59,843 nt of DNA. Origin: a bacterium (GTDB lineage: Bacteria > Patescibacteriota > Minisyncoccia > UBA6257 > GWB1-50-10). Within the stretch, counting starts at the first letter, position 1. Each line of letters begins with the position of its first letter. The notes below the pieces were generated by a model, which was given only the letters and a program-made list of their open reading frames with translations, did no database searches and had not been told where the DNA came from. The position numbers and the translations under genes are program-made. Below are positions 7,435 through 57,789 of the stretch, one piece after another. The stretch covers positions 1-59,843 of the forward strand of contig JAUSKB010000016.1 of assembly GCA_030647415.1 (NCBI GenBank). Direction: 5' to 3'.

Positions 7435-8280
7435 CTACCACGAGGCGGGACAGGTGGCCGTCGAGGTGGTAATCGTTCCGGCATTTGAAACGCCGATGCG
7501 GTAACACGTGCCGTTCGGCGATGTGAGCACGATGCCGGCGGCCGAGGTCGTGACGCCGATATCCCCCGCCGAACGGAGTTTCGCGGTACCCGCGGGGGCC
7601 ACGGTGCCGATACCGACACCGCCGTCCGTGGAAATGGTGCCCGAGAGGAAGAGGTCCTGCCATTTGCGGAGTGCGGTGCCGATGCCGCGGTTCGGCCCGA
7701 TGTCGCTCACCGGAAGCAGATTGGAATCAAACGTCGCCGCAGACACTTTCGCGATGGCGCTTTGCCATGACCGCGCGACCTGGGCACCTTGTTTCCCTGA
7801 AGAGCTGACGAGTGTCATATTAACCTCCACGACCGCGGTGCCACCGGGGTTTTGAAATGGCGTCACGAGGAACTGACCAACGGTCACCCTATCATCCGTG
7901 AGCGCCACCGGCGTCCCGGCCGCCTGACCATCCGGAATCTCCTCCACATATATCGCCGTACCCTCGCTGTTTACATATATCTTCACGCGGTCATTCACGG
8001 TGGCGGTGGACATTCGGAGCACTAAGGTGCTTGTGGGAACGCCCAATATGCTTTCCACGGCGCTCGCCGCGCGGACATAGCGCTGAATCGTGTCCGCGAC
8101 GAAGGTAATCTCCCGGGTGACATCGTTCGCTGATGCCTGCCGGACCTGCGTGCGAGTGACCGTCGTCAAGATGGAAATTAGAAATACCGCAGCCATCGAG
8201 AAGATGGCGATGTAGACCAGGAGCTCGACTAGTGTGAACCCTGTTCGAGTTTTGCAAACATTCTGGTTCTCGTGAAACAT
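7435..8280 (-). CDS. type IV pilin-like protein (prepilin N-terminal cleavage/methylation motif)
   Basis: From the ATG at 8280 the protein reads MFHENQNVCKTRTGFTLVELLVYIAIFSMAAVFLI, the classic G/FTLxE plus hydrophobic helix. The tracked ORF extends to 8367, but that part looks like a repeat arm. Confidence 0.75.
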   Translation of the reverse strand: MFHENQNVCKTRTGFTLVELLVYIAIFSMAAVFLISILTTVTRTQVRQASANDVTREITFVADTIQRYVRAASAVESILGVPTSTLVLRMSTATVNDRVKIYVNSEGTAIYVEEIPDGQAAGTPVALTDDRVTVGQFLVTPFQNPGGTAVVEVNMTLVSSSGKQGAQVARSWQSAIAKVSAATFDSNLLPVSDIGPNRGIGTALRKWQDLFLSGTISTDGGVGIGTVAPAGTAKLRSAGDIGVTTSAAGIVLTSPNGTCYRIGVSNAGTITTSTATCPASW

Positions 8281-8402
8281 CGTTGTATCCGGGACCGCCT
8301 GTGTTCGAGGTTCGGATTGCACGAAAAACTCAAACAGGGTAAACCCAGTGCGCGGATTGAGACTCATGAATACGCTATAATCATACCATACTATTTCGCC
8401 CG

Positions 8403-16080: not shown

Positions 16081-18036
16081 TCAGGTGCGCGGCTCGGTCG
16101 CCTGAGGCGACCGATCACGCATCCGGTGCTCATAGTACCACAGAAATACGTCGCGTGCTACCGGCGTGGTATTCATACTCCCTTCCCGTGAGTTTTCAAT
16201 GAGAATGAGCAGCGCGAGCTCCGGACGGTCCGACGGCGCGAATCCCACGAAGAACGCGTTGGTTCGCTGATTGTTCTCAATTTGTGCCGTCCCCGTCTTC
16301 CCGGCGACCGGGATCGGCAGGTCGTGGAGCGCGTACGAGGTGCCGTACGGCTGCCGAACGCCGTCCCGCATACCTTGCCGAACGACCTCGAGTGCCGGTC
16401 CCAATGTCGAACTGGAATCCTGTAGGATGATCGGCCCGCCTCGACTCGCTCGCTCGCTCGCCTCGCCCGCCTCGCCGAGACGTCGAGTCGAGGCTGGGCT
16501 GGAGCTCCGGCGAAGCGGGTCGGGCGAGGCGGGCCCGCCGACCGACTGGACGATCCGCGGCTGGTACCATATGCCGCCGTTCGCAACCGCGGCAATGTAG
16601 TTCAAGAGCGCGATGGGCGTGACCCCAAGGTCTCCCTGCCCGATTGAGACGTGATACGTGTCGCCGATGCGCCACGGGCGGTCGAAGGTGCGCTCGAACC
16701 ACTCCGGGTCCGGCAAAAAACCTTTCTCCTCCTCGTCAAGGTCGATGCCGGTCGGCTGGTCGAGACGGAACACCTGCCACCACCGCTTCAATGCCACGAT
16801 GCCCAACCCCCGCTGGGATTCGAATCCCCCGCCGACCTCGTAGAAGTAGACATTCGACGACCGCGCGAGCGCGCTCCGTACATCGACCCAACCGTGCGGT
16901 TTCCAGTCCGGGAATATGCTCGGCTGGTCCGGCACATACGGATTGGGAAGCTCAAGCTTTCCAGAAGAAAATATACTCGTGTCAGGGGTTACGATGCCAT
17001 CGGTCAGGGCTGCAGTCGCCATGAGCGGTTTGATGGTCGAGCCGGGACTGTACACACCGCTAACCGCGCGATTGAACAGGGGTTTCGTCGGGTCCGAGAG
17101 GTAGGAGGCGATCTTCCCGGGGTCGTACCCCGGCACGCTCGCGAGCGCGAGCACCTCGCCGTTCTGGGGATTGAGCGCAATCGCCGCGCCGCTCGTTCGG
17201 CCGAGCTCGGCGAGTCCCTGGCTCAACCGGTCAGAGAGGTACGTCTGAAAATCGGCATCGATGAATGTCCGAAGGTCCCCGCCGGCCGCCGAGTCCTGCG
17301 CCGCGCGTTCGCCGCGGACCTCGCCCCGAGCATCCCGGAGCGTCACCCGTTCGCCGTTCACCCCGCGGAGCACCGAGTCGTAGGAACCCTCGAGCCCTAC
17401 GCGACCGACCACATCGTTCACGATGAGCCGGTCATCAGCGTGGAGGTCGGCGTCGTTCGCAAGCCCCACATACCCGATGAGGTGCGAGAATGCGAGCGGG
17501 TTCGCGACTACACGGTTGAACGACGGGACCACGGAGACGCCGGGGAGCTTCGCGGATGCGACGGCGACCAACACATCCTGCGATGGATTCGTGGTAAGCA
17601 CCAGTTCGTCGGCCACGTTCCAGTTCTTTTTGGCGACGGTGTCGAACAGCGTCTGCTGGTCGCTTCCGAGGGCCTCACCAAGGCGCGTGAGTGTGGCCCG
17701 CCGCTCCTCCGGACTGGTCGGCAGATACCGAGGCGCAAGGATGATGTTGAACGACGGGACATTCTTCACGAGCGGCACGCCATACCGGTCATAGATGACG
17801 CCGCGCGGCGCAAGCTCCACGCGCGAATCGCTCATATTCGCGAGCGCACGCGCCGCAAACGCCTCATGTTCGACGAGTGAAAAATATCCGACTCGAATAC
17901 CGACGCCGACAACGACGAATATGCCGACAAGAAGCAGTCGCCGAAACAGGCGGTCCGTCACCGGAACCTCAAGGAGGTCGTCCTCGACAACTCGGTCGGT
18001 CAGAATATCTTCGAGGTTCAGCGGTTCTCGGGACAT
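16081..18036 (-). CDS. mrdA: penicillin-binding protein 2 (elongasome transpeptidase) carrying an in-frame repeat insert
   Basis: N-terminal TM helix, a PBP dimerisation region, and transpeptidase motifs (SPGSTIKP, SSN, KTGTA). Downstream of mreBCD. The insert ...GGPASPDPLRRSSSPASTRRLGEAGEASERASRGG... is element A2. Confidence 0.9.
   Translation of the reverse strand: MSREPLNLEDILTDRVVEDDLLEVPVTDRLFRRLLLVGIFVVVGVGIRVGYFSLVEHEAFAARALANMSDSRVELAPRGVIYDRYGVPLVKNVPSFNIILAPRYLPTSPEERRATLTRLGEALGSDQQTLFDTVAKKNWNVADELVLTTNPSQDVLVAVASAKLPGVSVVPSFNRVVANPLAFSHLIGYVGLANDADLHADDRLIVNDVVGRVGLEGSYDSVLRGVNGERVTLRDARGEVRGERAAQDSAAGGDLRTFIDADFQTYLSDRLSQGLAELGRTSGAAIALNPQNGEVLALASVPGYDPGKIASYLSDPTKPLFNRAVSGVYSPGSTIKPLMATAALTDGIVTPDTSIFSSGKLELPNPYVPDQPSIFPDWKPHGWVDVRSALARSSNVYFYEVGGGFESQRGLGIVALKRWWQVFRLDQPTGIDLDEEEKGFLPDPEWFERTFDRPWRIGDTYHVSIGQGDLGVTPIALLNYIAAVANGGIWYQPRIVQSVGGPASPDPLRRSSSPASTRRLGEAGEASERASRGGPIILQDSSSTLGPALEVVRQGMRDGVRQPYGTSYALHDLPIPVAGKTGTAQIENNQRTNAFFVGFAPSDRPELALLILIENSREGSMNTTPVARDVFLWYYEHRMRDRSPQATEPRT
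16433..16535. repeat. GC-rich palindromic element family A, full-length copy A2 (inside mrdA)
   Basis: 11-bp perfect termini ggcccgcctcg / cgaggcgggcc. The core is identical to A1/A3 (cctcgcccgcctcgccgagacgtcgagtcgaggctgggctg). Confidence 0.88.
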
Positions 18037-18058: not shown

Positions 18059-18169
18059 GTTTACCCTGTTAGAGATTTACATGCACGCCTTTCAAAATAT
18101 ACCTGTTTGTACTAATACCAGCAGGTATACATCCAAAATGATTCTCTGTAAATCTCTAACAGGGTGAAC
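18059..18169. repeat. 107-bp-class TIR element family F4, copy 1
   Basis: Arms gtttaccctgttagagatttaca / tgtaaatctctaacagggtgaac (1 mismatch). It lies 23 nt upstream of the mrdA ATG. Confidence 0.88.
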
Positions 18170-23939: not shown

Positions 23940-23959
23940 GGTTTGCCTCCACCTCCTGT

Positions 23960-24478: not shown

Positions 24479-24590
24479 TAATTTCTCCCAATATTGGTTT
24501 ATGAATGATTCCTTACTTTTCTATTGAAATTATAGCACTATTGTATGCTTTTTGTCAAATTTATCTGCTCCCCCCAGTTGGACTCAAACC

Positions 24591-24627
24591 CACAGCAATT
24601 TCCCCACATCCTGCACCGTGACGATGG
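24591..24627 (-). pseudogene. relic copy of the rseP 3' end
   Basis: cacagcaatttccccacatcctgcaccgtgacgatgg matches 25421-25457 at 33/37 positions. It would encode ...TIVTVQDVGKLL, compared with rseP ...AIVTVQDVGKLL*. Confidence 0.8.
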
Positions 24628-24643
24628 TACGGCGGCCCCGTGT

Positions 24644-24952: not shown

Positions 24953-24963
24953 GCGATAGATAG

Positions 24964-25257: not shown

Positions 25258-25381
25258 AGCTTGCGCGCGCTATTTTGTCGACCTTTATACACTAACACCA
25301 ACAGTATAGCAATATTGCTATACTTGTAAAGAGGTGTTGTTCCGTCAGTTTTTGTCTCGTGTTTCGTGTCTCGTTATTATA

Positions 25382-25419: not shown

Positions 25420-26481
25420 CTACAGCAGTTTCCCCACGTCCTGCACGGTGACGATGGCCATGAGGAGAAGGAGGGCGGCGAACCCGACGCCGTTTATGGC
25501 TATCTGTACTCGGCGCGGGATGGGGCGCCGAATGAGCTTTTCAACAAGCAACACGAGGACCCGGCCGCCGTCCAAGGCCGGAAACGGAATCAGGTTCAGG
25601 ATGACCAGGTTCAGCGAGATGAGGGCGAGGAGCTGGAAAAAGTAGACCGCGCCGAGCTCGCCCGTGCGGACGGCAAAGCTCACAATACCGACCGGCCCGC
25701 TCACCTTCTGGAGCACGCCGGGCTCCGTAAAAACATTTGTGAGGAGGTACCAGAAGCTCGATGCCACCTCCCCGAGCGTCCGGAAGGTCTGGAAGAAGGC
25801 CTCGGCAATCGCCTGGTGAATCGGGAGGGCCGGAAACCCGATGGAGGTGAGCGCAATACCGAGTGAGCCCTCGCCCGGCGGCGGGGTCGCCCGCCCGACG
25901 AGCGTGACGGTGCGCGTCCCGCCCGCACCGGTGAGTTCAAGCGAGAGCGTCTTCCCCGCCGCGGACCTGGCGAGCGCGACGAATGCGTCGGCGTCTATTG
26001 GGTCCGCGAGCGCCGTCTCTCCCCATGTGGCGCGGGCGATGACATCACCCTGCACGATGCGTGCTTCAGCCGCGGGCGAACCGGACGAGACGCCACCCAC
26101 GATGAGATGCTCCGGCGCGCCGGCGGCGAAGACACCCGTCAAAATTACAAATCCGAAGAGGACGTTCATCGCTACACCCGCAAGGAGAATACCGATCCGC
26201 TTCCAGAGTGGTTTCGCTCCAAAGCGCCGTTCCGGCTCATCGCCCACCTCCTCTTCCGACTTCCCAGCCGGCTGTTCCCCGTGGATGCGCACGAACCCGC
26301 CAAACGGCAGGGCGTTCACGCTGTATGTCGTCTCGCCCACCGTCCGGCTCCAGAGCCGCGGCGGGAACCCGATACCAAACTCGTCCACGCGCACTCCGGC
26401 CGCCTTTGCCGCCAAAAAATGGCCCAGCTCATGGACCAGGATGACGAGCGACAAACCGATGATGGATAAAAAAATAATCAT
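25420..26481 (-). CDS. rseP: RIP metalloprotease RseP (site-2 protease, M50)
   Basis: HELGHF zinc motif in the first TM helix, a PDZ-like middle region, and the C-terminal motif LNLIPFPALDGG. Confidence 0.92.
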   Translation of the reverse strand: MIIFLSIIGLSLVILVHELGHFLAAKAAGVRVDEFGIGFPPRLWSRTVGETTYSVNALPFGGFVRIHGEQPAGKSEEEVGDEPERRFGAKPLWKRIGILLAGVAMNVLFGFVILTGVFAAGAPEHLIVGGVSSGSPAAEARIVQGDVIARATWGETALADPIDADAFVALARSAAGKTLSLELTGAGGTRTVTLVGRATPPPGEGSLGIALTSIGFPALPIHQAIAEAFFQTFRTLGEVASSFWYLLTNVFTEPGVLQKVSGPVGIVSFAVRTGELGAVYFFQLLALISLNLVILNLIPFPALDGGRVLVLLVEKLIRRPIPRRVQIAINGVGFAALLLLMAIVTVQDVGKLL

Positions 26482-26482
26482 A

Positions 26483-26572
26483 ATTCCTAATTTCTAATTA
26501 CCAATTTCTAATTACCAATCACAAACCAGAAATCCCCATTGGATATTAGAAATTGGAAATTAGTAATTTTAT
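26483..26572. repeat. spacer-filling imperfect palindrome (ctaat/attag words)
   Basis: ctaatttctaattaccaatttctaattaccaat ... attggatattagaaattggaaattag. The arms are colinear. It fills the gap between the rseP start and the frr stop. Confidence 0.75.
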
Positions 26573-26574
26573 CT

Positions 26575-27123
26575 TTACTCTCTAATCTCCCCTTCCTTCT
26601 TCTCGACCAGCGAGTCAATGAGCTTGTTCGCCGTATCCACCGCCTCCTGGATCTGGTCCTTGAACATGAACTTCCGATCCTCAGGCACCTCGCCATCGGA
26701 GAATCCCTGCTGGACCGACTTATTCGCCTCATCGCGCGCGTGCCGGATCTGGATGCGGTGGTCCTCCGCGAGCCGTTTCGTGTGCTTCACAAGCTCCTCG
26801 CGCCGCTCCTCGGAAAGTTCCGGGAGCCGCACCCGGACGGTAAGCCCATCCGCGGTCGCGCTCACATGGAGTGAGGAGGTTTCGATCGCCTTTATGATGC
26901 CCGGTATCGCTTCTTTATCCCACGCTTGGATGACGATGTCCCGCGGCGGCATGACGCCAACGGAGGCAACCTGCTTCAGGGGCAGGAGCTCCCCGTAGTA
27001 CATGACCCTCAGGTCCTCCACCAGCCCCGGCGAGGGCCGCCCCGTGCGGATTCCGGCAAACTCCTTCGTGAGACTGTCAGTGATGGGCTTCAGTGCGGCT
27101 CGAAAATTTTCGATGCTAAACAT
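26575..27123 (-). CDS. frr: ribosome recycling factor
   Basis: 182 aa; ...EFAGIRTGRPSPGLVEDLRVMYYGELLPLKQVASV... Confidence 0.93.
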   Translation of the reverse strand: MFSIENFRAALKPITDSLTKEFAGIRTGRPSPGLVEDLRVMYYGELLPLKQVASVGVMPPRDIVIQAWDKEAIPGIIKAIETSSLHVSATADGLTVRVRLPELSEERREELVKHTKRLAEDHRIQIRHARDEANKSVQQGFSDGEVPEDRKFMFKDQIQEAVDTANKLIDSLVEKKEGEIRE

Positions 27124-28020: not shown

Positions 28021-28150
28021 AAATCCTAAATCCTAATTTCTAAACTCTAAACAAATTCGAAACTCTAAATCTCAAACAATGCGAAGGGCTCTGAATCCGT
28101 TTCGAATTTCGTGCTTGGGATTTGTTTAGAATTTAGGATTTAGTGCTTAG
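28021..28150. repeat. spacer-filling imperfect palindrome (ctaaa/tttag words)
   Basis: aaatcctaaatcctaatttctaaactctaaacaaattcgaaac ... gtttcgaatttcg..gatttgtttagaatttaggattt. It fills the gap between the holB start and the mreB2 stop. Confidence 0.75.
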
Positions 28151-28153
28151 AGT

Positions 28154-29161
28154 TTACCTTTTAGAGAGCAGTGTCCGCTTGTAGACATCGAGGTGGTTTA
28201 AAATGGTGGCCGTCCCCTTCGCCACGCATAAAATCGCGTCTTCCGCCACATAGGCGGCGACGCCGAGCGAGCGCTTGAAGAACTCCTGAAGGTCACGGAG
28301 CTGGGCGCTACCGCCGGACAGGATAATCCCCTTCTCCATGATGTCGGCGGCGAGCTCCGGCGGCGTCACATTGAAGACGGACTGGACCGCGTTCATGATC
28401 TCCACGAGGTGGGGATTGATGGCCTCCGAAACCTCGTTCGACGTGATGGTAAGGTCTTTCGGGAGCCCCGAGGGGAGGTCTCGGCCGCGCACCTTCATCT
28501 CGATCTTCGAGCGGTTCGAAAGCGCCGTCCCCACCCCAATCTTCACGTTCTCCGCCGTCGTGTCCCCGATGGCAAGCCCATATTTCTTCCGGATATAGTC
28601 GCTGATGGACTGGTCGAACCGGTTTCCGGCGACCCGAAGCGAGGACCAGGTCACGATGCCGCCCAGGGAGATGACGGCAACCTCCGTCGTGCCGCCACCC
28701 ATGTTCACAATCATATTCCCCTCCGCCGAGTGGATGGGGATGCCCGCGCCGAGTGCCGCGAGGAGCGGCTCCTTCACGAGGTAAACCTCGCGCGCACCCG
28801 CCTCCTTCGCCGCGTTCATCACGGCGCGGTACTCGGTCGAGGTAATGCCCGCCGGCACCGAGATGACCACCTCGGGCCGGAACAGGTTCAGGGAGCCGAT
28901 GCTCTTCGCAATGAAGTACTTCAGCATCGCCCGCGTGATGTAGTACTCGGCGATGACACCATCTTTCAGGGGCCGGTAGGTCACGATGTTGTCCGGCGTG
29001 CGGCCGACCATCTCCTTCGCCTCGGTGCCCACGGCGAGCACGGTGTTGTCGGGCAGTCGGAGTGCGACGGCCGTCGGCTCGTTGATGACGATACCCTTGT
29101 CCGGCAGGAAGACAATCGTGTTCGTCGTGCCGAGGTCGATGCCAATCTTGCGGATGAACAT
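28154..29161 (-). CDS. MreB/Mbl paralogue (second actin-like rod-shape protein)
   Basis: [18 protein letters not shown]..., NMGGGTTEVAVISLGG, SGGSAQLRDL. Confidence 0.93.
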   Translation of the reverse strand: MFIRKIGIDLGTTNTIVFLPDKGIVINEPTAVALRLPDNTVLAVGTEAKEMVGRTPDNIVTYRPLKDGVIAEYYITRAMLKYFIAKSIGSLNLFRPEVVISVPAGITSTEYRAVMNAAKEAGAREVYLVKEPLLAALGAGIPIHSAEGNMIVNMGGGTTEVAVISLGGIVTWSSLRVAGNRFDQSISDYIRKKYGLAIGDTTAENVKIGVGTALSNRSKIEMKVRGRDLPSGLPKDLTITSNEVSEAINPHLVEIMNAVQSVFNVTPPELAADIMEKGIILSGGSAQLRDLQEFFKRSLGVAAYVAEDAILCVAKGTATILNHLDVYKRTLLSKR

Positions 29162-35467: not shown

Positions 35468-36214
35468 CTAGCGTTTCTTCTTCGTCTTCCCGCTTGGCGC
35501 TTCAAGTGAGACGGTGGGCGTCACTTCGACGCCTGCAACCTTCTCGAAATGGTCCTTTAGGATATTGCCTGCCTTATGGAGCGCTTCGGACGGCGTGATG
35601 GAACCATCCGTCTCGATCTCGAGCTGGAGCCGATTGTAGTCCGTCTGGTCGCCCACCCGCATATTCTCCACTATGAACGAGACACGGACGATTGGCGAAA
35701 AGATTGCGTCGAGCACGATGGTGCCGACCGGAAGCCGCTCAAGCCGACGCGCCTCCGCCGGGACGTAGCCGAGCCCCTTCTCGACTGTGAGCTCCACGTC
35801 GAGATCAGCCGATTTCTTGGTGAGCGTCGCGAGATGTAATGGTGTGTTGATGACCCTCGCAAACGTCGTCGATTCAATGTCTTCGGCGGTCACTGCCCGC
35901 TCGCCCTTCGCGTGGAGCGTGAGTACTTGCGGCTCGTCCGCAAAAAAGTGGAATCGAACCTGCTTCAGGTTCAGTATGAACTCGACCACATCTTCCATCA
36001 TGCCTGGAATTGTCGAGAACTCGTGGTCGACCCCCTTGACTTTGATTTGCGTGATGGCGGCGCCGGGCAACGACGAAAGCAGGGTTCGCCGGAGCGCGTT
36101 CCCCAGCGTGGTGCCGTACCCGGTGTACAGTCCTTCGATGTGGAATACGCCGATATTCTGCTCCTCGGAGACCTTTTTGATGACGACGGTGTCACTGACG
36201 TGTGTGTATTTCAT
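35468..36214 (-). CDS. rpoA: DNA-directed RNA polymerase alpha subunit, N-terminal domain only
   Basis: Canonical alpha-NTD (GYGTTLGNALRRTLLSSLPGAAIT...). The ORF ends at 248 aa (...EAPSGKTKKKR*) with no alpha-CTD. Confidence 0.9.
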   Translation of the reverse strand: MKYTHVSDTVVIKKVSEEQNIGVFHIEGLYTGYGTTLGNALRRTLLSSLPGAAITQIKVKGVDHEFSTIPGMMEDVVEFILNLKQVRFHFFADEPQVLTLHAKGERAVTAEDIESTTFARVINTPLHLATLTKKSADLDVELTVEKGLGYVPAEARRLERLPVGTIVLDAIFSPIVRVSFIVENMRVGDQTDYNRLQLEIETDGSITPSEALHKAGNILKDHFEKVAGVEVTPTVSLEAPSGKTKKKR

Positions 36215-36319
36215 CCCGTTAGAAATTTAAACATATTCGTTGATTTTTTGTATACGACTGTTTTTTGGAAACATGATTTTATTGATTCACCAATCCCGCG
36301 TAAATTTCTAACGGGATGA
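36211..36319. repeat. TIR element family F4, copy 2
   Basis: Perfect 19-bp arms tcatcccgttagaaattta / taaatttctaacgggatga. The rpoA ATG (36212-36214) lies inside the left arm. Confidence 0.9.
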
Positions 36320-36321: not shown

Positions 36322-36513
36322 GCGAATTTTTACTGAGCGAAGCGAAGGCTAAAAATTCAGCACCCCGCTTGATACGTTTGAAACGGAGGGCACTCCGGAT
36401 ACTCGACTGTATCCTATTTTGAGAAATATTGTCATTGGTTCGGCGATATCTAGCGGGGTAAGGTTTGATGGCTGTATTTTCTGCGCTTTCAGCTTGAAAA
36501 TCCAGACCAAGCC
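36322..36513. repeat. about 195-bp long-armed palindrome family F5, copy 1
   Basis: Left end gcgaatttttactgagcgaagcgaaggctaaaaattcagcaccccgc. Right end gcggggtaaggtttgatggctgtattttctgcgctttcagcttgaaaatccagaccaagccc. It abuts the rpsD stop. Confidence 0.85.
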
Positions 36514-36514
36514 C

Positions 36515-37114
36515 TTATCGGGCATAAAACTGGCTCACAACTGTTATGTCGAAGGGGAAATTCGTGTCGCTGGTGGTCGATGTTGCGAAAACGTTTCCGC
36601 TCATCGTGTCGGTATTGAGCTTGAGCCATGTGGGCGGCGTGAATTCTTTGAGGCGTTCCGAAAGCTCTTCAAACTGCTTCGAGTCGCGGGATTCGGGACG
36701 GATGGACACGGCGTCGCCGGGACGGAGCAGGTGTGATGCCACGCTCGAGCGGCGACCGTTCACCAGGATGTGCCCATGATTCACCAGCTGCCGCGCGATG
36801 CGCGGCGACTTCGCGAGCCCGAGCTGAAACACGACCTGGTCCAACCGATGCTCTAGCGTCTCGCGAATCGCCTGCGGCGACGGCTCGGCGAAAATCCGGC
36901 GCATCTGCCGGTCGGTGAGGCCGAAGTACCACTGAATCTTCTGCTTCTCCATGAGCTGCTTACCGTAGTCGGTTTTCGTCTGCCGCCGCTCGCCGTGCTG
37001 GCCCGGACGCGACGGCCGGCGTACCATGACGCACTTCGGTGAATTGCAACGGTCCGCCTTCACAAAGAGCTTCACGCCCAATGCCCGTTCTTGTTTTTCG
37101 GTGATTCGTTTCAT
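36515..37114 (-). CDS. rpsD: 30S ribosomal protein S4
   Basis: Zinc-knuckle N-terminus (ADRCNSPKCVMVRRPSRPGQHG) and an S4 RNA-binding domain (RLDQVVFQLGLAKSPRIARQLVNHGHILVNG). Confidence 0.95.
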   Translation of the reverse strand: MKRITEKQERALGVKLFVKADRCNSPKCVMVRRPSRPGQHGERRQTKTDYGKQLMEKQKIQWYFGLTDRQMRRIFAEPSPQAIRETLEHRLDQVVFQLGLAKSPRIARQLVNHGHILVNGRRSSVASHLLRPGDAVSIRPESRDSKQFEELSERLKEFTPPTWLKLNTDTMSGNVFATSTTSDTNFPFDITVVSQFYAR

Positions 37115-37310
37115 GCCGATTTTATTTGAGCGGAGCGAAATTTAAAATCGAGCACCCCGCACCACTTTTGCAGCAAGGTAGTGATTCAATGATGGTGTGT
37201 GTGATAGATGTCATATTTTTCAGTAATGATTCGTGAGGCAAAAGTGGTGCGGGGTAAGGTTTGGTGGCTGTATTTTCTGCGCCTTCGGCTTGAAAATCCA
37301 GACCAAGCCC
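37115..37310. repeat. long-armed palindrome family F5, copy 2
   Basis: Inner perfect 18-bp stem accccgcaccacttttgc / gcaaaagtggtgcggggt. The outer right arm is near-identical to 36453-36513. It exactly fills the gap between the rpsK stop and the rpsD start. Confidence 0.88.
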
Positions 37311-37763
37311 TTATACGCGTCGCCGCTTCTTCGGCCGTGGACCGTTGTGCGGGATGGGCGTGCAATCGCGCACCGCAGTGATATTGAAACCTTTAGCTGC
37401 GAGCGTCCGCATCGCGGAATCTCGGCCTTTGCCAATACCCCGCAACACGATTTCCACGTTCGTTGGCCCCGACCGCTTCACTTTCTCCGCAATCGCCTCC
37501 GCAACCTTCGAGGCCGCAAATGGCGTCGCCTTCTTCGGACCGGAAAACCCGAGCGACCCCGCGGACATCCATGCTACCACGCCACCCTTCAAATCGGTCA
37601 CGGTAATCATGGTGTTATTGAACGAAGTGTGGATGTAAATCTTGCCGGCGTCCAAGCGCTGCCTGGTGCTCTGCGCCGACTTGGCAGCCGCGGTTGCTTC
37701 GACCGCCTCGGATTCCTTGATGAGGTCGTCCTGGTTCTTCGTGATGGTCTTTTTCTTTCCCAT
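37311..37763 (-). CDS. rpsK: 30S ribosomal protein S11
   Basis: ...GKIYIHTSFNNTMITVTDLKGGVVAWMSAGSLGFSGPKKATPFAA... Confidence 0.95.
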   Translation of the reverse strand: MGKKKTITKNQDDLIKESEAVEATAAAKSAQSTRQRLDAGKIYIHTSFNNTMITVTDLKGGVVAWMSAGSLGFSGPKKATPFAASKVAEAIAEKVKRSGPTNVEIVLRGIGKGRDSAMRTLAAKGFNITAVRDCTPIPHNGPRPKKRRRV

Positions 37764-38161: not shown

Positions 38162-38163
38162 AA

Positions 38164-38274
38164 TGATACAAATATACTAATGGTACGAATGATACTAATC
38201 ATACGAATGGGAATTCGTTGGTGTTATTAGTATTATTCGTATCATTCGCATGAATTCGTATATTGGTATCGCAC
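38164..38274. repeat. palindrome family C, copy C3
   Basis: gatacaaatatactaatggtacgaatgatactaatcatacgaatggg ... ttagtattattcgtatcattcgcatgaattcgtatattggtatc. It fills the gap between the rpsM start and the rpmJ stop. Confidence 0.88.
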
Positions 38275-38387
38275 TAGCCCTGCCTCTGCTTATGCTTCTT
38301 GTTCACACAAATAACGAAGACACGACCACGGCGTCTGACCGTTTTGCATTTCATGCAGATTTTCTTTACTGATGAGCGTACCTTCAT
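38274..38387 (-). CDS. rpmJ: 50S ribosomal protein L36
   Basis: Not in the ORF track (too short). The minus strand encodes [37 protein letters not shown], canonical L36 in its usual place between infA and rpsM. Confidence 0.9.
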
Positions 38388-38490
38388 CCTGTTAGAGTTT
38401 TACACGCAATCCAACTGCGTGTAAAAAGTTTTTCGTTTGGCAAACAAGTTTCCATAGGATTCGTGGGTTTGTAAAACTCTAACAGGATGA
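38384..38490. repeat. TIR element family F4, copy 3
   Basis: Perfect 21-bp arms tcatcctgttagagttttaca / tgtaaaactctaacaggatga. The rpmJ ATG (38385-38387) lies inside the left arm. Confidence 0.9.
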
Positions 38491-38898: not shown

Positions 38899-40611
38899 CT
38901 ACTCCACCACGACCGTGATTTTCCGGGAATCGTTCGGCGCCCGGCGGACCCAGAACGGCCACAGATGCACGGTTGCCTTCGAGATGCCGGGAATGTCTGA
39001 AAGCATTGAGTTGAGCTTCGTTTCATCCTTGCCCAGTATGAGCGTGGTAAGTGCAGTGCTATCGAGCACATACCGGAGCGCTACCGTGCCGGATGCCGCG
39101 ACCGTGAGTGTACCACGATCGAAGTCGACTGTTGGCACCTCGAACGACGCATCGATCGAGTCCACGGTGAGCGACGAGGACTGCTGCGCCGCCGCACGCA
39201 CCGCCCGTGCGCCAACCGCCTCCTTGAACATGCGGTCATCAAAGACAATCTGCTTGAGCGACGCCTCACCGAACAACCGAAACGTACCGGAATCGTCCCC
39301 CGACGAGCGGAGGCGGCGCAGAACGACGAACCGCGTTGCGTCACGGAGCTCCGTAAAATGCTCATTTGCGGTGAGGAGCACCAGCTCGCTCACGAGCGCA
39401 TCACGGAGCGACGCATCGAGCGACTGCACCGCCCTCGCCTCCTCTTCCTTCGTGGGCGCTGCCCGTTCGCCCATGAAACCGCCCCGGAGTGCGTCCGGCG
39501 CCGCCGCGGTGAACGTATCATATTTCGGCGTACCCTGGAATCCCGGAATCCGCCATCCGTCGCTCGCAGGGACATTATGCGCCTCCCCGGCCGCATCAGC
39601 CGTCACCGAAACAGTCGTCGTGGACGATTGGATGGTTCCCCCAGAAACCCGTGCACCGGGAATGACCGATCGCTGGTTTAAGCGGAACACCGTGCCCTCC
39701 GGCGAGACAAACCGGGTCGTTGCGACCAGCACTTGCGGTTCCGAACTGAACGCGTTCGTCACCACGAGTGTTCCCGACGCCTTCGTGGCCACACGTTCCG
39801 TCCCTGCCGTCGGGAAGGTGAGCTCCAACGTGCGCCGTGCGTCGAACGACTGTGCAGGCAGCACGATGCGCGTGCCGGTACTCTCGGGCGCAGTGACACG
39901 GACCGAGGCGTCGATCAATTCCATGAACGGGATGGGAATCCGTGCGGCGCGAATCGTGACGGTCGCGCGCGGCACCACCGCGGTCGCCACCCACCAGCCT
40001 CCCCCGAGTACCGCGGCGGCGCATACGGAAATCACCAGGACGCGGAACCAGTGCGGTGACCGCTTGGGACGCTCCGGCTCCGGCTCTGGAACCGCGGCAG
40101 GTTGTGTGTCCTTCGTCGAACGTTCGCTGTTTTCAATTTCGAGTTTTGACTCTTCGCGCTCAACTTCTTGACGTTCGATATCAGACGTTAGACGATCTGC
40201 GGCAGATTCCACCGCTTGCGCATTCAATCCACCTCGCCCGCCTCGCCGAGACGTCGAGTCGAGGCTGGGCTGGAGCCGCGACGAAGCGGACCCGACGAGT
40301 GGGCGAGTCGAGGCGGGCCGTGCGATGATATCGGAAACAGCCCGCTCCTTCGAGTGGAAGAATGCGTTGCGGGATGGGATCCCGGCGAGCGACGCGAGTT
40401 CGAGGATATGGTCGTCCGCCGACTCGATCATGAGCTCCTTCCCCGCGTGCTCGGCTTCCCGGCGCAAGAGGTGGAAATTCTGCACCGAAACGCCAATGTC
40501 GGCTCCGGACGGGATGGTAAGCATAATCCTCGTGGAATCCTCGGTAAGGATCTTTTCCACGATTGCCGGGAGGCTATCCCCGCGCGCAATGAGTATTTTT
40601 TTCTCGGTCAT
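38899..40611 (-). CDS. hypothetical bitopic envelope protein carrying an in-frame family A element
   Basis: 570 aa: a cytoplasmic N-domain, one TM helix (VLVISVCAAAVLGGGWWV), and a large beta-rich C-domain. The insert ...SASSRLQPSLDSTSRRGGRGG... is element A3. Confidence 0.65.
   Translation of the reverse strand: MTEKKILIARGDSLPAIVEKILTEDSTRIMLTIPSGADIGVSVQNFHLLRREAEHAGKELMIESADDHILELASLAGIPSRNAFFHSKERAVSDIIARPASTRPLVGSASSRLQPSLDSTSRRGGRGGLNAQAVESAADRLTSDIERQEVEREESKLEIENSERSTKDTQPAAVPEPEPERPKRSPHWFRVLVISVCAAAVLGGGWWVATAVVPRATVTIRAARIPIPFMELIDASVRVTAPESTGTRIVLPAQSFDARRTLELTFPTAGTERVATKASGTLVVTNAFSSEPQVLVATTRFVSPEGTVFRLNQRSVIPGARVSGGTIQSSTTTVSVTADAAGEAHNVPASDGWRIPGFQGTPKYDTFTAAAPDALRGGFMGERAAPTKEEEARAVQSLDASLRDALVSELVLLTANEHFTELRDATRFVVLRRLRSSGDDSGTFRLFGEASLKQIVFDDRMFKEAVGARAVRAAAQQSSSLTVDSIDASFEVPTVDFDRGTLTVAASGTVALRYVLDSTALTTLILGKDETKLNSMLSDIPGISKATVHLWPFWVRRAPNDSRKITVVVE
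40232..40319. repeat. GC-rich palindromic element family A, copy A3
   Basis: Core identical to A1/A2. The right end gggcgagtcgaggcgggcc is the reverse complement of the A2 left end. Confidence 0.88.
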
Positions 40612-40612: not shown

Positions 40613-40717
40613 TACCCTGTTAGAGTTTTACAGACACACAAATATCTCACAAAGTTTTGTTCGCGCAATAACAAATTTTTATATGCAATGGATTATGTGT
40701 AAAACTCTAACAGGGTA
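40613..40717. repeat. TIR element family F4, copy 4
   Basis: Perfect 20-bp arms taccctgttagagttttaca / tgtaaaactctaacagggta. The left arm starts 2 nt from the ATG of 38899..40611. Confidence 0.9.
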
Positions 40718-40734
40718 GACCCTTCTGTTTTGTA

Positions 40735-40756
40735 TGTAAACTTCTAACAGGGTGAA
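40735..40756. repeat. solo F4 arm
   Basis: tgtaaacttctaacagggtgaa, an extra right-type arm 18 nt after copy 4. Confidence 0.75.
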
Positions 40757-40773: not shown

Positions 40774-42063
40774 CTATGGTTGCGCGATAAGCCACCGGGC
40801 GCGGCGGCGCAGAAGCTGGTTTAAGATACCATACTCGCGGCGGGCATACGGGTACATCACCGCGGCAAACGTCTCCGCAGAAAACGTAGTGCTCGCCTCG
40901 CTCCGCCATGGAGGGGCGGGGCGGGGCGGGCCTTCGCCCCGCCAAAGCGGGCTCCGGCACCGCGAAGGCGGGGCGTTCCCGACGACGGTAAACCCCCGTG
41001 CGGAACAGACCTGATCCGCCGAGATGCAGGAGATGGGCGCATGAGACAGGAGCGTCTGAAACCGCGGCACCGAGGCTCGAAAATGGACCAAGCGGTCACC
41101 CGCGGACCTATCCACCGCTGCATCATGGGCAGGTTTGCTGCCAGAAACTTTTATTGAGGTGAGCTTCCGCTTCCCGGAAAGTCCGTCAATGTACTCCAGT
41201 AGTTGCGTAGCTTTCAGCCGAAGCACCCGGTCGACCGCACGCGCAAATCGCTCTGATGTCCTGCCATGGGCGACCGCGGTGAGTAGTTCCCGTGCCACCA
41301 GCGGGGAGCTCATGAAATGTTCCGCAACCGCAGTAATGACCGAGGCGGCACCCCAGTCAAATTCGCGCAGAAACGCCAGATCTTCATCGCGCCGGATAAA
41401 CACGGTCGTTCGCTGTTCGCCGACATCGAGCAGGTACCCTCCCGAACCCTTGAGGAGGGTGCTCGCGAGGAGGCTCCCCCGCTCGGCGACGGTAAGTTCG
41501 CCGACCCAGCCGTGGAATCGATTGAACGCTTCCGCGAGCGTTCGGGGCACGAACGTACCGCGGAACCCCACCGCGAGCACACCGCCCCGGAACCCGATCG
41601 GATTCAAGAGCCGATGCCCATCAAGGGAGACGTTAATCACCTCGATTGCGGCGAGCGTGAGATCGAGGTCGGCGATGTCCATTTTTTTCGCCGCCCAGGA
41701 CCGGTACCGATTCAGGAACTCCCACAGCGCCTTAAAGACGAGCGTGTCGAGCTCCCCCTCGTCGATGGGACGCTCGATGACCTCACGCCGCACGCGCGCG
41801 ATACTCTCGACGGTCGTTGCGCGACGGCCGTCGAGCACCACGACACCTCGGTCGAATGGAAATAGTCGCCGGCGAACGCTCCGAAAGTCATTCGCGTGGT
41901 ACGGCGTCCCAAGCGCAACCCGTTGCTCCACATGGTCAACGGTCGCCGGCGTGACCGTGAATCCGCGCCCCGCCTCGTCGGAGTCCGCCTCCTCAATGAC
42001 GATAAAATGCTCCCGAGCGCGTTTCAGGATGGTCCCAATCCGTTCTCCAAGTGTCGCCATCAC
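40774..42063 (-). CDS. actin-fold FtsA/PilM-like protein
   Basis: ...GGYLLDVGEQRTTVFIRRDEDLAFLREFDWGAASVITAVAEHF... is the typical phosphate-2/adenosine region of FtsA/PilM. The C-terminus has a basic amphipathic tail. Confidence 0.55.
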   Translation of the reverse strand: MMATLGERIGTILKRAREHFIVIEEADSDEAGRGFTVTPATVDHVEQRVALGTPYHANDFRSVRRRLFPFDRGVVVLDGRRATTVESIARVRREVIERPIDEGELDTLVFKALWEFLNRYRSWAAKKMDIADLDLTLAAIEVINVSLDGHRLLNPIGFRGGVLAVGFRGTFVPRTLAEAFNRFHGWVGELTVAERGSLLASTLLKGSGGYLLDVGEQRTTVFIRRDEDLAFLREFDWGAASVITAVAEHFMSSPLVARELLTAVAHGRTSERFARAVDRVLRLKATQLLEYIDGLSGKRKLTSIKVSGSKPAHDAAVDRSAGDRLVHFRASVPRFQTLLSHAPISCISADQVCSARGFTVVGNAPPSRCRSPLWRGEGPPRPAPPWRSEASTTFSAETFAAVMYPYARREYGILNQLLRRRARWLIAQP

Positions 42064-42073: not shown

Positions 42074-42182
42074 GTTTACCCTGTTAGGGTTTTACACACA
42101 AATTTTTCCGGATAAAAACCTATGTTCTGACACAAAAAAAACACCAGGACGCGGATTGCTCGTAAAACCCTAACGGGGTATA
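42074..42182. repeat. TIR element family F4, copy 5
   Basis: Arms gtttaccctgttagggttttaca / cgtaaaaccctaacggggtatac. It lies 11 nt upstream of the ATG at 42063. Confidence 0.85.
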
Positions 42183-43609: not shown

Positions 43610-43617
43610 GCAACTAT

Positions 43618-43720
43618 GATACTAATATACGAATGGTACGAATGATACTAATGGATACGAATGGGAATCTATTGGTAGTATTCGTATCATTCGAATGCAT
43701 TCGTATATTGGTATCACGCT
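43618..43720. repeat. palindrome family C, copy C4
   Basis: gatactaatatacgaatggtacgaatgatactaatggatacgaatggg ... gtagtattcgtatcattcgaatgcattcgtatattggtatc. It fills the gap between the ATPase start and the upstream stop. Confidence 0.88.
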
Positions 43721-54409: not shown

Positions 54410-55783
54410 TCATGTGATAATGCCCCCGCCGAGCATTTCCCCGTCCTCGGAATACCAGACCGCGGACTGGCCGGGGGCGATGAATTTGACAGGAGCAGTA
54501 AAAAGTAAGCAGTAATTGTCCCGACTTTGTCGTGGACTCACGACTCTGTCGGAGGTAATAGGTAATGAACTCCCAGTTACCTCTTGCGTATTACTTATTA
54601 CCAGCTCTCCCCTCACCAACGGCTGCCGGTACCGCACCCGGGCGAGGACGGACATGCTAACATTCTGCAGAATGTTAGCATGTTGCAGCGTGTCATTGCC
54701 ATCGCTTGGCAAATCCGTCATTCTAACATTCTTAAGAATGTTAGAATGACTTCCGTTGATAAAATTTACATTTGCAAGCGTCACCTCCGTGCGGAAGAGC
54801 GCGGGATTGTCAGTGCCCTCGGCGACCATGACGACATTCTTCTCCACATCGATTGCCGAGATGTAGTATGGCGGCGTTTCTGCGTTTCCTTTTTCTTTTG
54901 TCTTTTTTCCTAAGTTGAGCCCATGCCGCTGCCCGATGGTGTACAGATGCGTGCCGCGGTGCTCCCCTACTTTAGTACCATTAGTCGCAATGACGTCCCC
55001 CGGACGGTCAGGGATGTGCCTCGCGACGAAGTCGGCGAGCGCGACGTCGCCCAGGAAGCAGATGCCCTGCGAGTCTTTTTTGTCTGCCGTAGGCAGACCA
55101 GCTTTCCGCGCGATGTCCCGTACTTCGGATTTCAGGAGGTCGCCGACAGGGAAGAGCGCGTGCGCGAGCTGTTTCTGCGTGAGCGTCCACAGGAAATAGC
55201 TCTGATCTTTGTTCTTATCCTTCGCCTCAAATAACGAAAAAGAGGGTGCGGCACCGCGCTTTTGTGAGGGGTAAGACTTGGGCGTCGCCCCGGAGACACC
55301 CCGAACGGAAGCGCGGTGCCGCACCCGTGCATAATGCCCCGTCGCCACATACTCCGCCCCGAGCGAGAGCGCCTTTTCCATGAACAGCCCGAACTTTATT
55401 TCGCGATTACAGACCACGTCCGGATTCGGCGTGATGCCGCGCCGGTACCCGTCAATGAGGTACTCCACCACACGCTGCCGGTACTCCTCCTCGAAGTCGA
55501 ACACGTAGAACGGGATGCCGAGGTGGTTCGCGACGCGCCGCGCGTCCTCCGCGTCTTTTTCCGATGGGCACTCGCCAGCCACGCCGAGCTCGTCAAGCCG
55601 CGCCTGGCTCCAGCACTTTAAGTACACCCCCGTCACGTCGTAGCCCCTAAACCCCTCCGGGGTCGGGCGACCAAACAATTTTTCGAAATTGTTTGGTGTA
55701 GCCCGCTTGAGCAACAACGCCGCAACGGAGCTATCTACCCCGCCCGACATACCTACGAACACTTTTTGTCGTTTGATTGACAT
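54410..55783 (-). CDS. mnmA: tRNA 2-thiouridine(34) synthase MnmA, about 95 aa longer than usual
   Basis: PP-loop VFVGMSGGVDSSVAALLL, DKNKDQSYFLW, and the C-terminal FIAPGQSAVWY. The extra length maps to palindromic DNA inserts. Confidence 0.9.
   Translation of the reverse strand: MSIKRQKVFVGMSGGVDSSVAALLLKRATPNNFEKLFGRPTPEGFRGYDVTGVYLKCWSQARLDELGVAGECPSEKDAEDARRVANHLGIPFYVFDFEEEYRQRVVEYLIDGYRRGITPNPDVVCNREIKFGLFMEKALSLGAEYVATGHYARVRHRASVRGVSGATPKSYPSQKRGAAPSFSLFEAKDKNKDQSYFLWTLTQKQLAHALFPVGDLLKSEVRDIARKAGLPTADKKDSQGICFLGDVALADFVARHIPDRPGDVIATNGTKVGEHRGTHLYTIGQRHGLNLGKKTKEKGNAETPPYYISAIDVEKNVVMVAEGTDNPALFRTEVTLANVNFINGSHSNILKNVRMTDLPSDGNDTLQHANILQNVSMSVLARVRYRQPLVRGELVISNTQEVTGSSLPITSDRVVSPRQSRDNYCLLFTAPVKFIAPGQSAVWYSEDGEMLGGGIIT
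54497..54602. repeat. word-type (taat/ggta) palindromic insert inside mnmA
   Basis: agtaaaaagtaagcagtaattg ... ggtaataggtaatgaactcccagttacctcttgcgtattacttattacc. The same vocabulary occurs in intergenic spacers at 6437-6522, 29172-29272 and 38810-38886. Confidence 0.7.
54654..54749. repeat. two perfect AT-rich palindromes inside mnmA (28 bp and 32 bp)
   Basis: atgctaacattctgcagaatgttagcat (54654-54681) and tcattctaacattcttaagaatgttagaatga (54718-54749). The 96-bp block equals 32 codons. Confidence 0.9.
55243..55325. repeat. GC-rich inverted-repeat insert inside mnmA
   Basis: Perfect 18-bp arms gggtgcggcaccgcgctt / aagcgcggtgccgcaccc, separated by 47 nt. Confidence 0.85.
55670..55697. repeat. 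12-bp-stem hairpin insert inside mnmA
   Basis: accaaacaattt-ttcg-aaattgtttggt; translated as TPNNFEKLFG between the PP-loop and the next conserved block. Confidence 0.8.
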
Positions 55784-56433: not shown

Positions 56434-57789
56434 CTACGGGCGGGCGCGGAGCAGGTCGAAGACGCGGTACGCCTCCCCTGCCCCCATCGTGATGACCACA
56501 TCCTTCGGACGGAGCGAACGGCGAAGTTCGCTAGCGATTTTTTTGAAACTTCCAACGTACGAAGCATCGGTCTGTACAGCCATTGCAACGGCAAGGTCAC
56601 GCGCATGCACTGTGCCGTCGTCCCGCTCCCGTGCCGCGTAGATATCTGCGAGGAGCACGTGGTCGGCATCGTTGAAGGCGGTCGCGAACTCACTCATGAG
56701 GAGTTTCGTCCGTGAGTAGAGGTGGGGCTGGAAAACGACCCAGATGCGCCGACGGGAACCAAAGTGTTCCCGCGCGGCCTTGAGCGCCGCGCGAATCTCC
56801 GTCGGGTGATGGGAGTAGTCGTCGTAGAAGCGGACGCTGTTCCAAGTTCCCTTGTACTCGAACCGGCGACCGACACCACGAAATGAACGAAGCGACTTTC
56901 GGATTATGGTGTCCGGGATGCCGAGAAATTTCCCGACCGCATACGCCGCCTGCGCGTTCCGGATATTGTGGTCGCCAATAACATTTAAATCTTTCAATCT
57001 TGGTGACTTTGAATAGTCCACGACCTTCGACCCGCGGATGACTTCGCGAATGTGCGGCGCCTTCGGGTCACAAATTACCGCCCCATTTCTCCCGAGTTTC
57101 GCCACAAACTCACGGAAGGCGCGTTTGATGTTCCCGATGTTCTTGTAGTAATCGAGGTGGTCGTTGTCGATGTTGGTGATGACAATGACGCTCGGGTGGA
57201 TATCGAGGAAGGACTTTTTGTACTCGCACGCCTCAGCGACGAGGTAAGGCCCTGTACCGCCAATAAAATTAGTCGCCATCCCGTTAGAAGCCACCCTGCC
57301 CGCAACACGGCTACGGCTGCCACGGGGCGGCCTGCTTCTAACGGGACTCATCATGCCGCCGACGATGACGGTGGGATCGAGTTTCGCATCTCGCAGGAGC
57401 TTCCCTACCATCGCCGTCGTGGTCGTCTTCCCGTGCGCACCTGCAACCGCGATGGTGAACTTCTCGCGCGAAATGATGCCGAGCATCTCGGCGTAAGAAA
57501 GACATGGGATTCTCTTTTGGCGTGCGGCAACAAGCTCGGGATTCGTGTCCGACACCGCCTTCGTGTACACCACCAAGTCCGGCTTCCCAATATCGGACAT
57601 CCGATGTCCGACATGGACGCGGATTCCCTCGCGGATGAGCGCGTCTGTTATGGACGACCGACCGGAGTCCGACCCGGTCACCCGCTTCCCCATGCGTGCG
57701 AGCATCCGTGCGATGGCGGATACCCCCACGCCACCAATGCCGACGCAGTGCACGCTTCGGACCTCCTCAAGTTTTATCCGCTTTAGCAT
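56434..57789 (-). CDS. murC: UDP-N-acetylmuramate--L-alanine ligase with an in-frame palindromic insert
   Basis: VHCVGIGGVGVSAIARMLARMGKRVTGSD, GAHGKTTTT, EACEYKKSF, DDYSHHPTE. The insert is ...SPVRSRPPRGSRSRVAGRVASNG.... Confidence 0.93.
   Translation of the reverse strand: MLKRIKLEEVRSVHCVGIGGVGVSAIARMLARMGKRVTGSDSGRSSITDALIREGIRVHVGHRMSDIGKPDLVVYTKAVSDTNPELVAARQKRIPCLSYAEMLGIISREKFTIAVAGAHGKTTTTAMVGKLLRDAKLDPTVIVGGMMSPVRSRPPRGSRSRVAGRVASNGMATNFIGGTGPYLVAEACEYKKSFLDIHPSVIVITNIDNDHLDYYKNIGNIKRAFREFVAKLGRNGAVICDPKAPHIREVIRGSKVVDYSKSPRLKDLNVIGDHNIRNAQAAYAVGKFLGIPDTIIRKSLRSFRGVGRRFEYKGTWNSVRFYDDYSHHPTEIRAALKAAREHFGSRRRIWVVFQPHLYSRTKLLMSEFATAFNDADHVLLADIYAARERDDGTVHARDLAVAMAVQTDASYVGSFKKIASELRRSLRPKDVVITMGAGEAYRVFDLLRARP
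57279..57346. repeat. F4-type arms flanking a GC-rich centre, inside murC
   Basis: Perfect 13-bp arms tcccgttagaagc / gcttctaacggga (compare the F4 copy 2 arm tcatcccgttagaaattta). Confidence 0.85.

Follow-up and report, generated by a model that had tools for sequence, protein, structure and literature searches.

Bacteria of the Candidate Phyla Radiation (CPR), Parcubacteria among them, have tiny, gene-dense genomes that are usually thought to be poor in mobile DNA. In Neisseria, by comparison, the Correia elements (CREE or NEMIS) are non-coding repeats of approximately 100-155 bp whose terminal inverted repeats (TIRs), of about 26 bp, fold into a long hairpin. They are present in dozens to hundreds of copies beside genes, with a short target duplication, and are co-transcribed with their neighbours, the hairpin serving as a substrate for RNase III; they can also give rise to outward promoters. 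Their TIR begins with TATAGTGGATTA…, target and duplication are TA, and the centre harbours an IHF site. To our knowledge, Correia elements are confined to Neisseria and have no tie to the start codon itself, nor do they rebuild codons. The 59,843-nt contig JAUSKB010000016.1 of assembly GCA_030647415.1, from a bacterium of the Patescibacteriota (Minisyncoccia; UBA6257; GWB1-50-10), carries a family of repeats of the same general build; this whole stretch is referred to here as the window. The family differs from Correia elements in its YCCCGTTAGA ends, its mostly TGAA duplication, and its hosts, which are represented by Parcubacteria metagenome-assembled genomes (MAGs). Its members are probably copies of a non-autonomous, hairpin-forming mobile element, similar to the miniature inverted-repeat transposable elements (MITEs), that is widespread in Parcubacteria/Paceibacterota. 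A MITE-like nature, with paired arms placed at start codons, had been the leading reading of an earlier note on this DNA, and is now supported by additional copies, patchy occupancy, duplications in relatives, and arm covariation.

The element set comprises 90 non-redundant copies from many Parcubacteria/Paceibacterota MAGs of 35-62% GC. A degenerate two-arm pattern matched 17 loci when 185,579 species genomes were scanned, and another 28 in metagenomes, every one of them on a Parcubacteria-like contig (32-62% GC), and a single-arm scan of the species genomes yielded 42 further loci, such that the search of related genomes which the earlier note had advised did bring many more copies to light. 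One MAG, WY3.bin113, holds at least 13 copies in the sampled loci, many of them near-identical; many dispersed copies, as expected of a MITE, are thus found in a single genome, as they are in the window with its seven. The viral contigs searched gave 0 matches to the element, the window had no match in Rfam at gathering score (the sole hit being a chance miRNA hairpin, E = 0.93), and tRNA and tmRNA genes were looked for without any being found. No literature description was found of MITEs or palindromic elements in CPR bacteria, or of MITEs that target start codons, and the family, although widespread, is apparently undescribed.

The element has the termini 5'-Y CCCGTTAGA … TCTAACGGG R-3' (YCCCGTTAGA … TCTAACGGGR), with a core-to-core length of 92-168 nt across the family and a mode near 98 nt, and is thus short and non-coding in the manner of a MITE, for which the usual size limit is about 300-500 bp. 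The terminal inverted repeats form a stem of 15-22 nt, of which about 16 bp are kept by compensatory changes, while the A/T-rich centre is free in sequence and constrained in length. In 66 distinct arm pairs, standard pairs occupy 88.4% of the cells, and changes on both sides are found in 129 cells, as compared to 55.4±5.6 when partners are shuffled, with none of 500 shuffles reaching 129; sliding the partner arm by 1-3 columns causes pairing to fall to 28-50%. The compensatory arm changes that had been noticed in the window copies are therefore upheld on a much larger set. Covariation involves stem positions 2 (U-A to C-G, 18 cells), 5, 12, 13, 14, and 16, whereas positions 3-11 are near-invariant and pairing fades past position 16. 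Upkeep of the stem could reflect selection for a DNA hairpin, selection for an RNA hairpin, or intramolecular correction. The inner stems vary over the family (AGAGTTTTACA, AGAAATTTA, AGAAACCGCGATC, AGAAGC, and others), and only the outer YCCCGTTAGA/TCTAACGGGR is common to all. The element is also polar: the arm distal to the gene retains GAGTTTTACA, while the inner part of the proximal arm is A-rich, T(G/T)(A/T)AAAAC, and the ACA is kept in the distal arm only in 27 copies, in the proximal arm only in 1, in both in 7, and in neither in 8. This polarity suggests either orientation-specific insertion or orientation-dependent survival.

When up to 3 mismatches are allowed, the arm core CCCTGTTAGAGTTTTACA is encountered 11 times in the window, against 0.03 expected, and an arm hidden Markov model (HMM) finds 15 arms, which make up seven paired copies (E1 to E7) and one solo arm:

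8235..8346, minus strand: E1, a degenerate copy found by the arm HMM within the 5' end of a pilin-like open reading frame (ORF; 7435..8367) with an N_methyl motif
18059..18169, minus strand: E2, upstream of mrdA (PBP2, 16081..18036), with 28 nt from the proximal arm core to the ATG
36211..36319, minus strand: E3, in the rpsD-rpoA spacer, with the rpoA ATG (36214) directly after …CGGG; arm subtype AGAAATTTA
38384..38490, minus strand: E4, upstream of rpmJ, whose ATG (38387) comes directly after …CAGG
40613..40717, minus strand: E5, between the genes for proteins of 429 and 570 aa, with the proximal arm at 40613-40634 and the distal arm at 40696-40717
40735..40756, minus strand: solo arm of the distal type, 15 nt upstream of E5
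42074..42182, minus strand: E6, upstream of the 429-aa 'ftsA-like' gene (40774..42063), with subtype AGGGTTTTAC mirrored on both arms
57276..57349, minus strand: E7, short and GC-rich, in frame inside murC (56434..57789), CCCGTTAGAAGC…GCTTCTAACGGG

The five copies recognized in the earlier note (E2 to E6) are all present and real, but E1 (8235-8346) and E7 (57276-57349) had been missed, and the total is seven pairs rather than five. The ATG is formed directly after the arm at rpoA and rpmJ, that of the 570-aa gene lies 4 nt past …CAGG, and the 429-aa gene and mrdA start 16-22 nt and 28 nt downstream of the arm. The description of the arms as perfect or with one mismatch was essentially right: they are perfect over at least 17 nt at 18059, 38384, and 40613 and over 15 nt at 36211, while those at 42074 have a single internal mismatch that is G·U-compatible. 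The centres are indeed A/T-rich and unique, with lengths of 64-67 nt, a GC content of 31-42% (58% in the window as a whole), and a global identity to each other of 46-58%, at which they are not mutually alignable; despite this divergence, the six long copies measure 98-101 nt from core to core. Read on the minus strand, on which all the nearby genes lie, a window copy consists of a distal …YCCYGTTAGAG(T/A)TTTAC…, the centre, and a proximal …GTAAA(A/T)CTCTAACRGGR. The copies fold into long stems with an energy far below that of shuffled sequences (z of -5 to -7), and the intergenic ones contain stops in all frames. The two remaining copies are tolerated in frame inside ORFs. E1 is translated as MSLNPRTG[FTLFEFF…KTRTG]FTLVELLV, the copy lying between MSLNPRTG and FTLVELLV, and E7 adds approximately 20 residues to MurC as compared to the solved MurC structures in the PDB. 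The possibility that the arms serve to encode the prepilin motif GFTLLE was also considered and set aside as a by-product of their sequence, E1 alone being located in an actual pilin gene.

Evidence of insertion comes from the sequences that flank the element. With the termini defined as Y…R and the 4 nt outside them compared, identical 4-mers flank 55 of the 83 copies outside the window, whereas shuffling the partners yields 10.8 on average and never more than 19; the duplication expected of a MITE is thus present in these relatives. TGAA/TTCA accounts for 36 of the 55 repeats, the rest including TGGA, TGAG, TGCA, TGTA, TCAA, and CACG, and each repeat follows the local gene sequence. Repeat length ranges from 3 to 5 nt, being 3 nt in locus L079 and reaching 5 nt for the rpoA copies of L025 and L031 (L numbers denote the individual loci studied). 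Copies that end in C…G are particularly informative: in L071 and L088 the distal relic reads ATGAA-C and the gene now starts with G-TGAA, which indicates that the duplication is TGAA and that the new start codon takes its first base from the end of the element.

Sites that are empty in one lineage and filled in another bear this out. At the E5 site, the start of the 570-aa gene, L030 is empty (…aaagaattaatATGAAAAACG), as is L028, whereas L020 is filled (…aaagaattaatATGAtaaat[CCCG…CGGG]ATGAAAAACG). At the E6 site, L038 has an empty start of the ftsA-like gene (…TGATATAATggttgtaATGAAGG) and its sister L032 a filled one (…TGATATAATagtggtaATGAAT[CCCG…TGGG]ATGAAGG). Among 53 rpoA-centred loci, the rpsD-rpoA spacer usually measures 4-40 nt and is empty; an element exactly at the rpoA ATG is found only in the window, L025, L031, and L045, which are scattered in the rpoA tree. 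At the start of rpmJ, the same nucleotide is occupied by at least 4 arm types among the window, L061, L042, L040, and L023, which argues for repeated independent insertions. The presence/absence polymorphism that the mobile reading calls for is therefore observed at the orthologous starts of rpoA, rpmJ, the ftsA-like gene, and the 570-aa gene, in relatives at the species level. Tandem or nested copies occur elsewhere (L039, 14263-14478; L011, 2651-2850; L077, 467-591; L091, 342-464), and suggest repeated insertion into the start codon made by an earlier copy. Duplicated tandem distal arms resembling the solo arm plus E5 are seen in L077 and L091 as well, and the solo arm at 40735-40756 is probably the relic of an earlier or nested copy.

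The association with start codons is exceptionally strong. In 60 of 88 copies, an ORF of at least 35 codons opens on one side with an ATG or GTG placed directly after …CGGG (offset 0), as compared to 1.0% for a random position, and in WY3.bin113 all 13 of 13 sampled copies lie directly on start codons; copies with a …CGGGG end yield GTG starts. The genes downstream have no common theme, and include rpoA, rpmJ, the glyceraldehyde-3-phosphate dehydrogenase (GAPDH) gene, ychF, scpB, mrdA, and many others. The flanks and the empty and filled orthologous sites show the element to lie between nucleotides 1 and 2 of the native ATG, at A|TGAA-like sites, with duplication of approximately 4 nt (range 3-5); the chemistry of insertion is deduced from these. 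In a gene that starts with ATGAA, native A|TGAA|N becomes A-TGAA-[Y…R]-TGAA-N, in which the old ATGAA remains at the distal end, and the last base of the element (A or G) together with the duplicated TG forms a new ATG or GTG for an ORF left intact. In very compact genomes, such insertions would be some of the rare ones that leave genes unharmed. Copies would pile up on start codons because ATGAA very often opens genes in these A/T-rich genomes, because rebuilding of the codon makes insertion there harmless, and because the short spacers presumably leave little room for neutral insertion elsewhere; the same gene starts would be hit repeatedly in different lineages. As a consequence, the gene would gain a new upstream region. 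On any transcript that spans both arms, the A and U of its start codon would be base-paired within a stem of about 20 bp, such that expression would have to proceed from a promoter in the centre, through processing of the stem, or through its melting by the ribosome.

In 16 of 52 copies, a -10-like TANNNT precedes the distal ATG by 6-8 nt, and where this native box is kept the native promoter, rather than the element, is probably active. Many genes in the window have TANNNT 5-7 nt before the start and no Shine-Dalgarno sequence (for example at 12608, 15529, 43609, 53098, and 57789), a sequence pattern that suggests widespread leaderless mRNAs. In relatives, TGnTATAAT-N7-ATG occurs at the ftsA-like gene, and TANNNT-N6/7-ATG without a Shine-Dalgarno sequence is common, by which token many targets of the element are probably leaderless genes. 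Transcription starts may be actively targeted.

Comparison with other palindromic families places the element outside each of them. Rickettsia palindromic elements (RPEs) are likewise palindromes of about 100-150 bp tolerated in frame in essential genes, as seen here in murC and in the pilin leader, but their sequence is different and they are not known to target start codons, while in the present family only 2 of 90 copies lie inside ORFs and a start codon is the norm. RUP, BOX, and ERIC MITEs are alike in size (RUP, 107 bp), TIRs, intergenic location, and effects on mRNA folding or stability; they differ in their TA duplication (IS630-like for RUP), in having no known tie to start codons, and in their hosts, which are Firmicutes and Enterobacteria rather than CPR bacteria. 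Integron attC sites are imperfect inverted repeats of 57-141 bp between ORFs, with structure rather than sequence conserved in the middle, and their cores GTTRRRY/RYYYAAC resemble the GTTAGAG and CTCTAAC of the arms. An attC identity was nonetheless rejected: the order of the cores is reversed (5'-GTTAGAG…CTCTAAC-3' here, 5'-RYYYAAC…GTTRRRY-3' in attC), there are no cassette arrays, and no integrase is present among the scanned window genes. The REP/REPIN sequences, associated with RAYT (Y1/HUH) proteins, are also hairpin doublets of about 100 nt, with two inverted units of about 20-25 nt and a variable spacer, and share compensatory arm evolution and long-term persistence with the present family. 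However, each REP unit is palindromic in its own right and has a conserved 5' GTAG, while the arm here is not self-complementary, and REPINs lack a target duplication and lie mostly downstream of genes, while duplications are present here; with direct repeats, a non-palindromic arm, and no RAYT-like gene adjoining the copies, membership in this family was discarded. By sequence, duplication, or target, the family belongs to none of Correia, RUP, ERIC, RPE, or REPIN. It is of note that mobilisation in trans by a single-copy, host-like gene, in the style of REPINs, would explain why no parent insertion sequence is seen.

A number of observations weigh against a transposed element, or at least against the details of its insertion. 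Copies entered the set on a minimum of 13 arm identities out of 20, a criterion that raises the proportion of paired cells. The terminal base of the element is often the same as the native base, and this, together with the variable repeat length, means that a duplication of 5-6 nt or recombination by core homology fits most copies equally well. The AGAAA subtype is found at rpoA in 3 of the 4 carrier lineages, which could reflect ancient orthology with repeated precise loss, and the collections searched contain no relative with more than ~78% nucleotide identity to the window, so that occupancy is compared at the species level. The target-site duplications found in relatives fail in the window itself: a direct repeat is seen in 0 of its 7 copies, and the flanks are instead inverted (TTCA|T…A|TGAA at rpoA and rpmJ; GTTTAC…GTGAAC elsewhere), meaning that the palindrome reaches 4-5 nt further. 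Their missing direct repeats, inverted flanks, diverged centres, and the solo arm suggest that the window copies are old, and possibly immobile. Nor was a mobilising enzyme identified. The single-arm scan of 185,579 species genomes, which covered one arm subtype and neighbourhoods of 8 kb, revealed no transposase-encoding element with these ends, every partner arm lying 75-85 nt away. Clustering of paralogues in the studied loci gave no paralogous or element-linked recombinase-like ORF, and Pfam scans of the larger window ORFs gave no transposase and no integrase. It may be added that long-range arm pairs in the studied loci were just neighbouring copies, and that no gene family recurs there beside the element. 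The conserved 11-nt termini point to a putative enzyme conserved across Paceibacterota.

Absence of a transposase-bearing parent from the single-arm scan would also agree with an unlikely alternative, in which a mini integrative element moves by site-specific recombination and not by a cut- or copy-and-paste transposase. Its circle would carry the junction …TCTAACGGGR-TGAA-YCCCGTTAGA…, a lox- or dif-like site with inverted arms of ~11 bp and a short asymmetric core, and would recombine, in one orientation, with any genomic site whose core matches, for instance the ATGAA of a gene start. Such a scheme accommodates the strongly fixed orientation to the gene (27 to 1), the fact that the base beside the distal repeat belongs to the element and not to the gene (ATGAA-T rather than ATGAA-N), and the arm-6 nt-arm junctions where copies abut (L039, 14348-14371; L011, 2651-2680); a covarying stem with only the outer ~11 nt fixed is, moreover, typical of sites recognized partly by shape. 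It has difficulty with the empty target sites, which contain no arm-like sequence for a recombinase to bind, and with a core of 3-5 nt, a length that falls between the 2 nt of serine recombinases and the 6-8-nt overlaps used by tyrosine recombinases, and no recombinase gene was found near the copies. Somewhat less doubtful, though still not favoured, is the idea that the family owes its retention mainly to a role as a portable promoter or 5'-leader cassette that would drive or tune the gene behind it, a 'mobile promoter' for which mobility is just the means of spread. Polarity towards the gene, the A-rich inner arm on the gene-proximal side, and the position of copies before essential genes that need expression (rpoA, rpmJ, ychF, scpB, GAPDH) speak in its favour, and a Zambryskibacteria sub-family has in its centre, in gene orientation, a conserved block, TGnTATTAT, that resembles an extended -10, such that an internal promoter is possible in that sub-family; E3, for its part, has TTTACG-17 nt-TAAAAT. 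Centres are otherwise unconserved between sub-families and between window copies, and the native -10-like box that persists in 16 of 52 copies is, judging by its sequence, probably the active promoter. Furthermore, TANNNT is not enriched 16-18 nt after the distal TTTACA (0, 3, and 1 of 34), which lends no general support to the latter as a -35 box; nor is the arm supported in general as an extended -10, its distance from the ATG being 8-9 nt, as compared to N6 at the leaderless-type genes of the window. Translational coupling through an upstream ORF was considered as well: of 51 such ORFs that begin at the distal ATG, 20 extend as far as the proximal arm, 11 of these stopping at a TAA 7 nt before the gene, and stop-free centres are not significantly more frequent in that frame (13) than in the other two (9 and 7).

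It is quite improbable that the repeats are non-mobile, host-selected cis-regulatory RNA hairpins that occlude the start codon, for example as a translational operator, an RNase III processing site, or an insulator between cistrons, and that they spread by vertical descent and local duplication. On transcripts that span both arms the stem does include the A and U of the start codon, and its preservation by compensatory changes, the fold z of -5 to -7 against shuffles, and the conserved length around diverged centres are what such a role would produce; but patchy occupancy among close relatives with clean empty sites, flanking direct repeats, downstream genes that share no function, copies inside ORFs, and many near-identical copies in one MAG are not, and Rfam holds nothing similar. 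The earlier note had also entertained a promoter, a 5'-UTR module, or a small-RNA gene family; given the failed -35/-10 test and the empty Rfam result, these are neither needed nor supported. The notion that the arms are paired operators, through which a DNA-binding regulator would draw ~80 bp of promoter DNA into a loop, is hardly credible: the very constant spacing of the arms (~82 bp centre to centre) and their highly conserved outer 11 nt would suit it, whereas a protein site would conserve sequence rather than covary between arms, a single arm is not a palindrome, and in-ORF copies, direct repeats, and empty orthologous sites do not fit. A mobile, MITE-like element therefore remains the preferred explanation.

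The host of these copies is of the Parcubacteria type, the window encoding a short rpoA, pilin-like and TrwB-like proteins, dnaK/dnaJ, mreBCD-mrdA, and aminoacyl-tRNA synthetases. The closest relatives of its rpoA, with 73-81% identity, are found in Jorgensenbacteria, Brennerbacteria, and Paceibacterota MAGs; the gene itself (35468-36214) encodes only 248 aa with no matched C-terminal domain, and all of 40-odd relatives are likewise of 245-271 aa. Other repeats are also present. A second family, at 5837-5911, 16446-16520, and 40217-40291, consists of GC-rich, partly palindromic units of ~75 nt (…CTCGCCCGCCTCGCCGAGACGTCGAGTCGAGGCTGGGCTG…) with 76-92% identity; one copy is located just upstream of dnaK, and two are read in frame within mrdA and the 570-aa gene. 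A periodic ACGAAT/ATGATAC inverted-repeat family (13984-14088, 15532-15598, 38162-38275, and 43616-43720) directly precedes the starts of the genes for serS, a class II aminoacyl-tRNA synthetase, and a TrwB-like ATPase, and is also found downstream of rpmJ; similar ACGAAT-rich spacers lie before rpmJ in L031 and L045. Low-complexity palindromes with TAATTAC/GAAATT and TTTAGGA/TCTAAAC periods fill the whole intergenic spacers at 26468-26575 and 28021-28155, and end 7 nt and 1 nt, respectively, before the ATGs of an M50 peptidase gene and a holB-like gene. Palindromes that abut start codons thus seem to be general in this genome. A 66-nt repeat, 95% identical between 36453-36518 and 37249-37314, is located at the stop codons of rpsD and of an upstream ORF (37311..37763). 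In mnmA (54410..55783, 457 aa), palindromes at 54653-54748 and 55244-55326 are read in frame as aa 346-377 and aa 153-180, respectively, in stretches that the Pfam matches cover only in part or not at all; they look like further in-frame palindromic insertions. Finally, the region of ~22000-25300 has a GC content of 50-53%, against 58-62%, carries Shine-Dalgarno-like AAGGAAGGAG and GGGAGA, and mostly lacks Pfam matches; this island may be foreign DNA.

Taken beyond the window, these data allow the tentative proposal, which we regard as possible rather than probable, of a phylum-wide superfamily in CPR bacteria, made up of mini-elements that home on start codons and are mobilised by some enzyme, possibly host-encoded. 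Its members would insert in fixed orientation between the first and second nucleotides of ORFs that are often leaderless, donate the first base of the start codon, and leave the 5' end led by a hairpin. For practical purposes, gene callers can be led to wrong starts and protein lengths by an ATGAA box that is present twice or by a copy in frame, while patchy occupancy could be used as a source of strain-tracking markers in metagenomes. A 20-bp stem over the starts of rpoA, rpmJ, scpB, ychF, and the GAPDH gene makes an effect on expression likely. The family appears to represent a new repeat class for CPR bacteria, distinguished by insertion into start codons and by their regeneration, and the rebuilding of start codons would be a way for selfish DNA to last where nearly any other insertion is lethal. 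If the superfamily does exist, it would constitute both a survival route for selfish DNA and a source of new 5' regulatory structures on essential genes.

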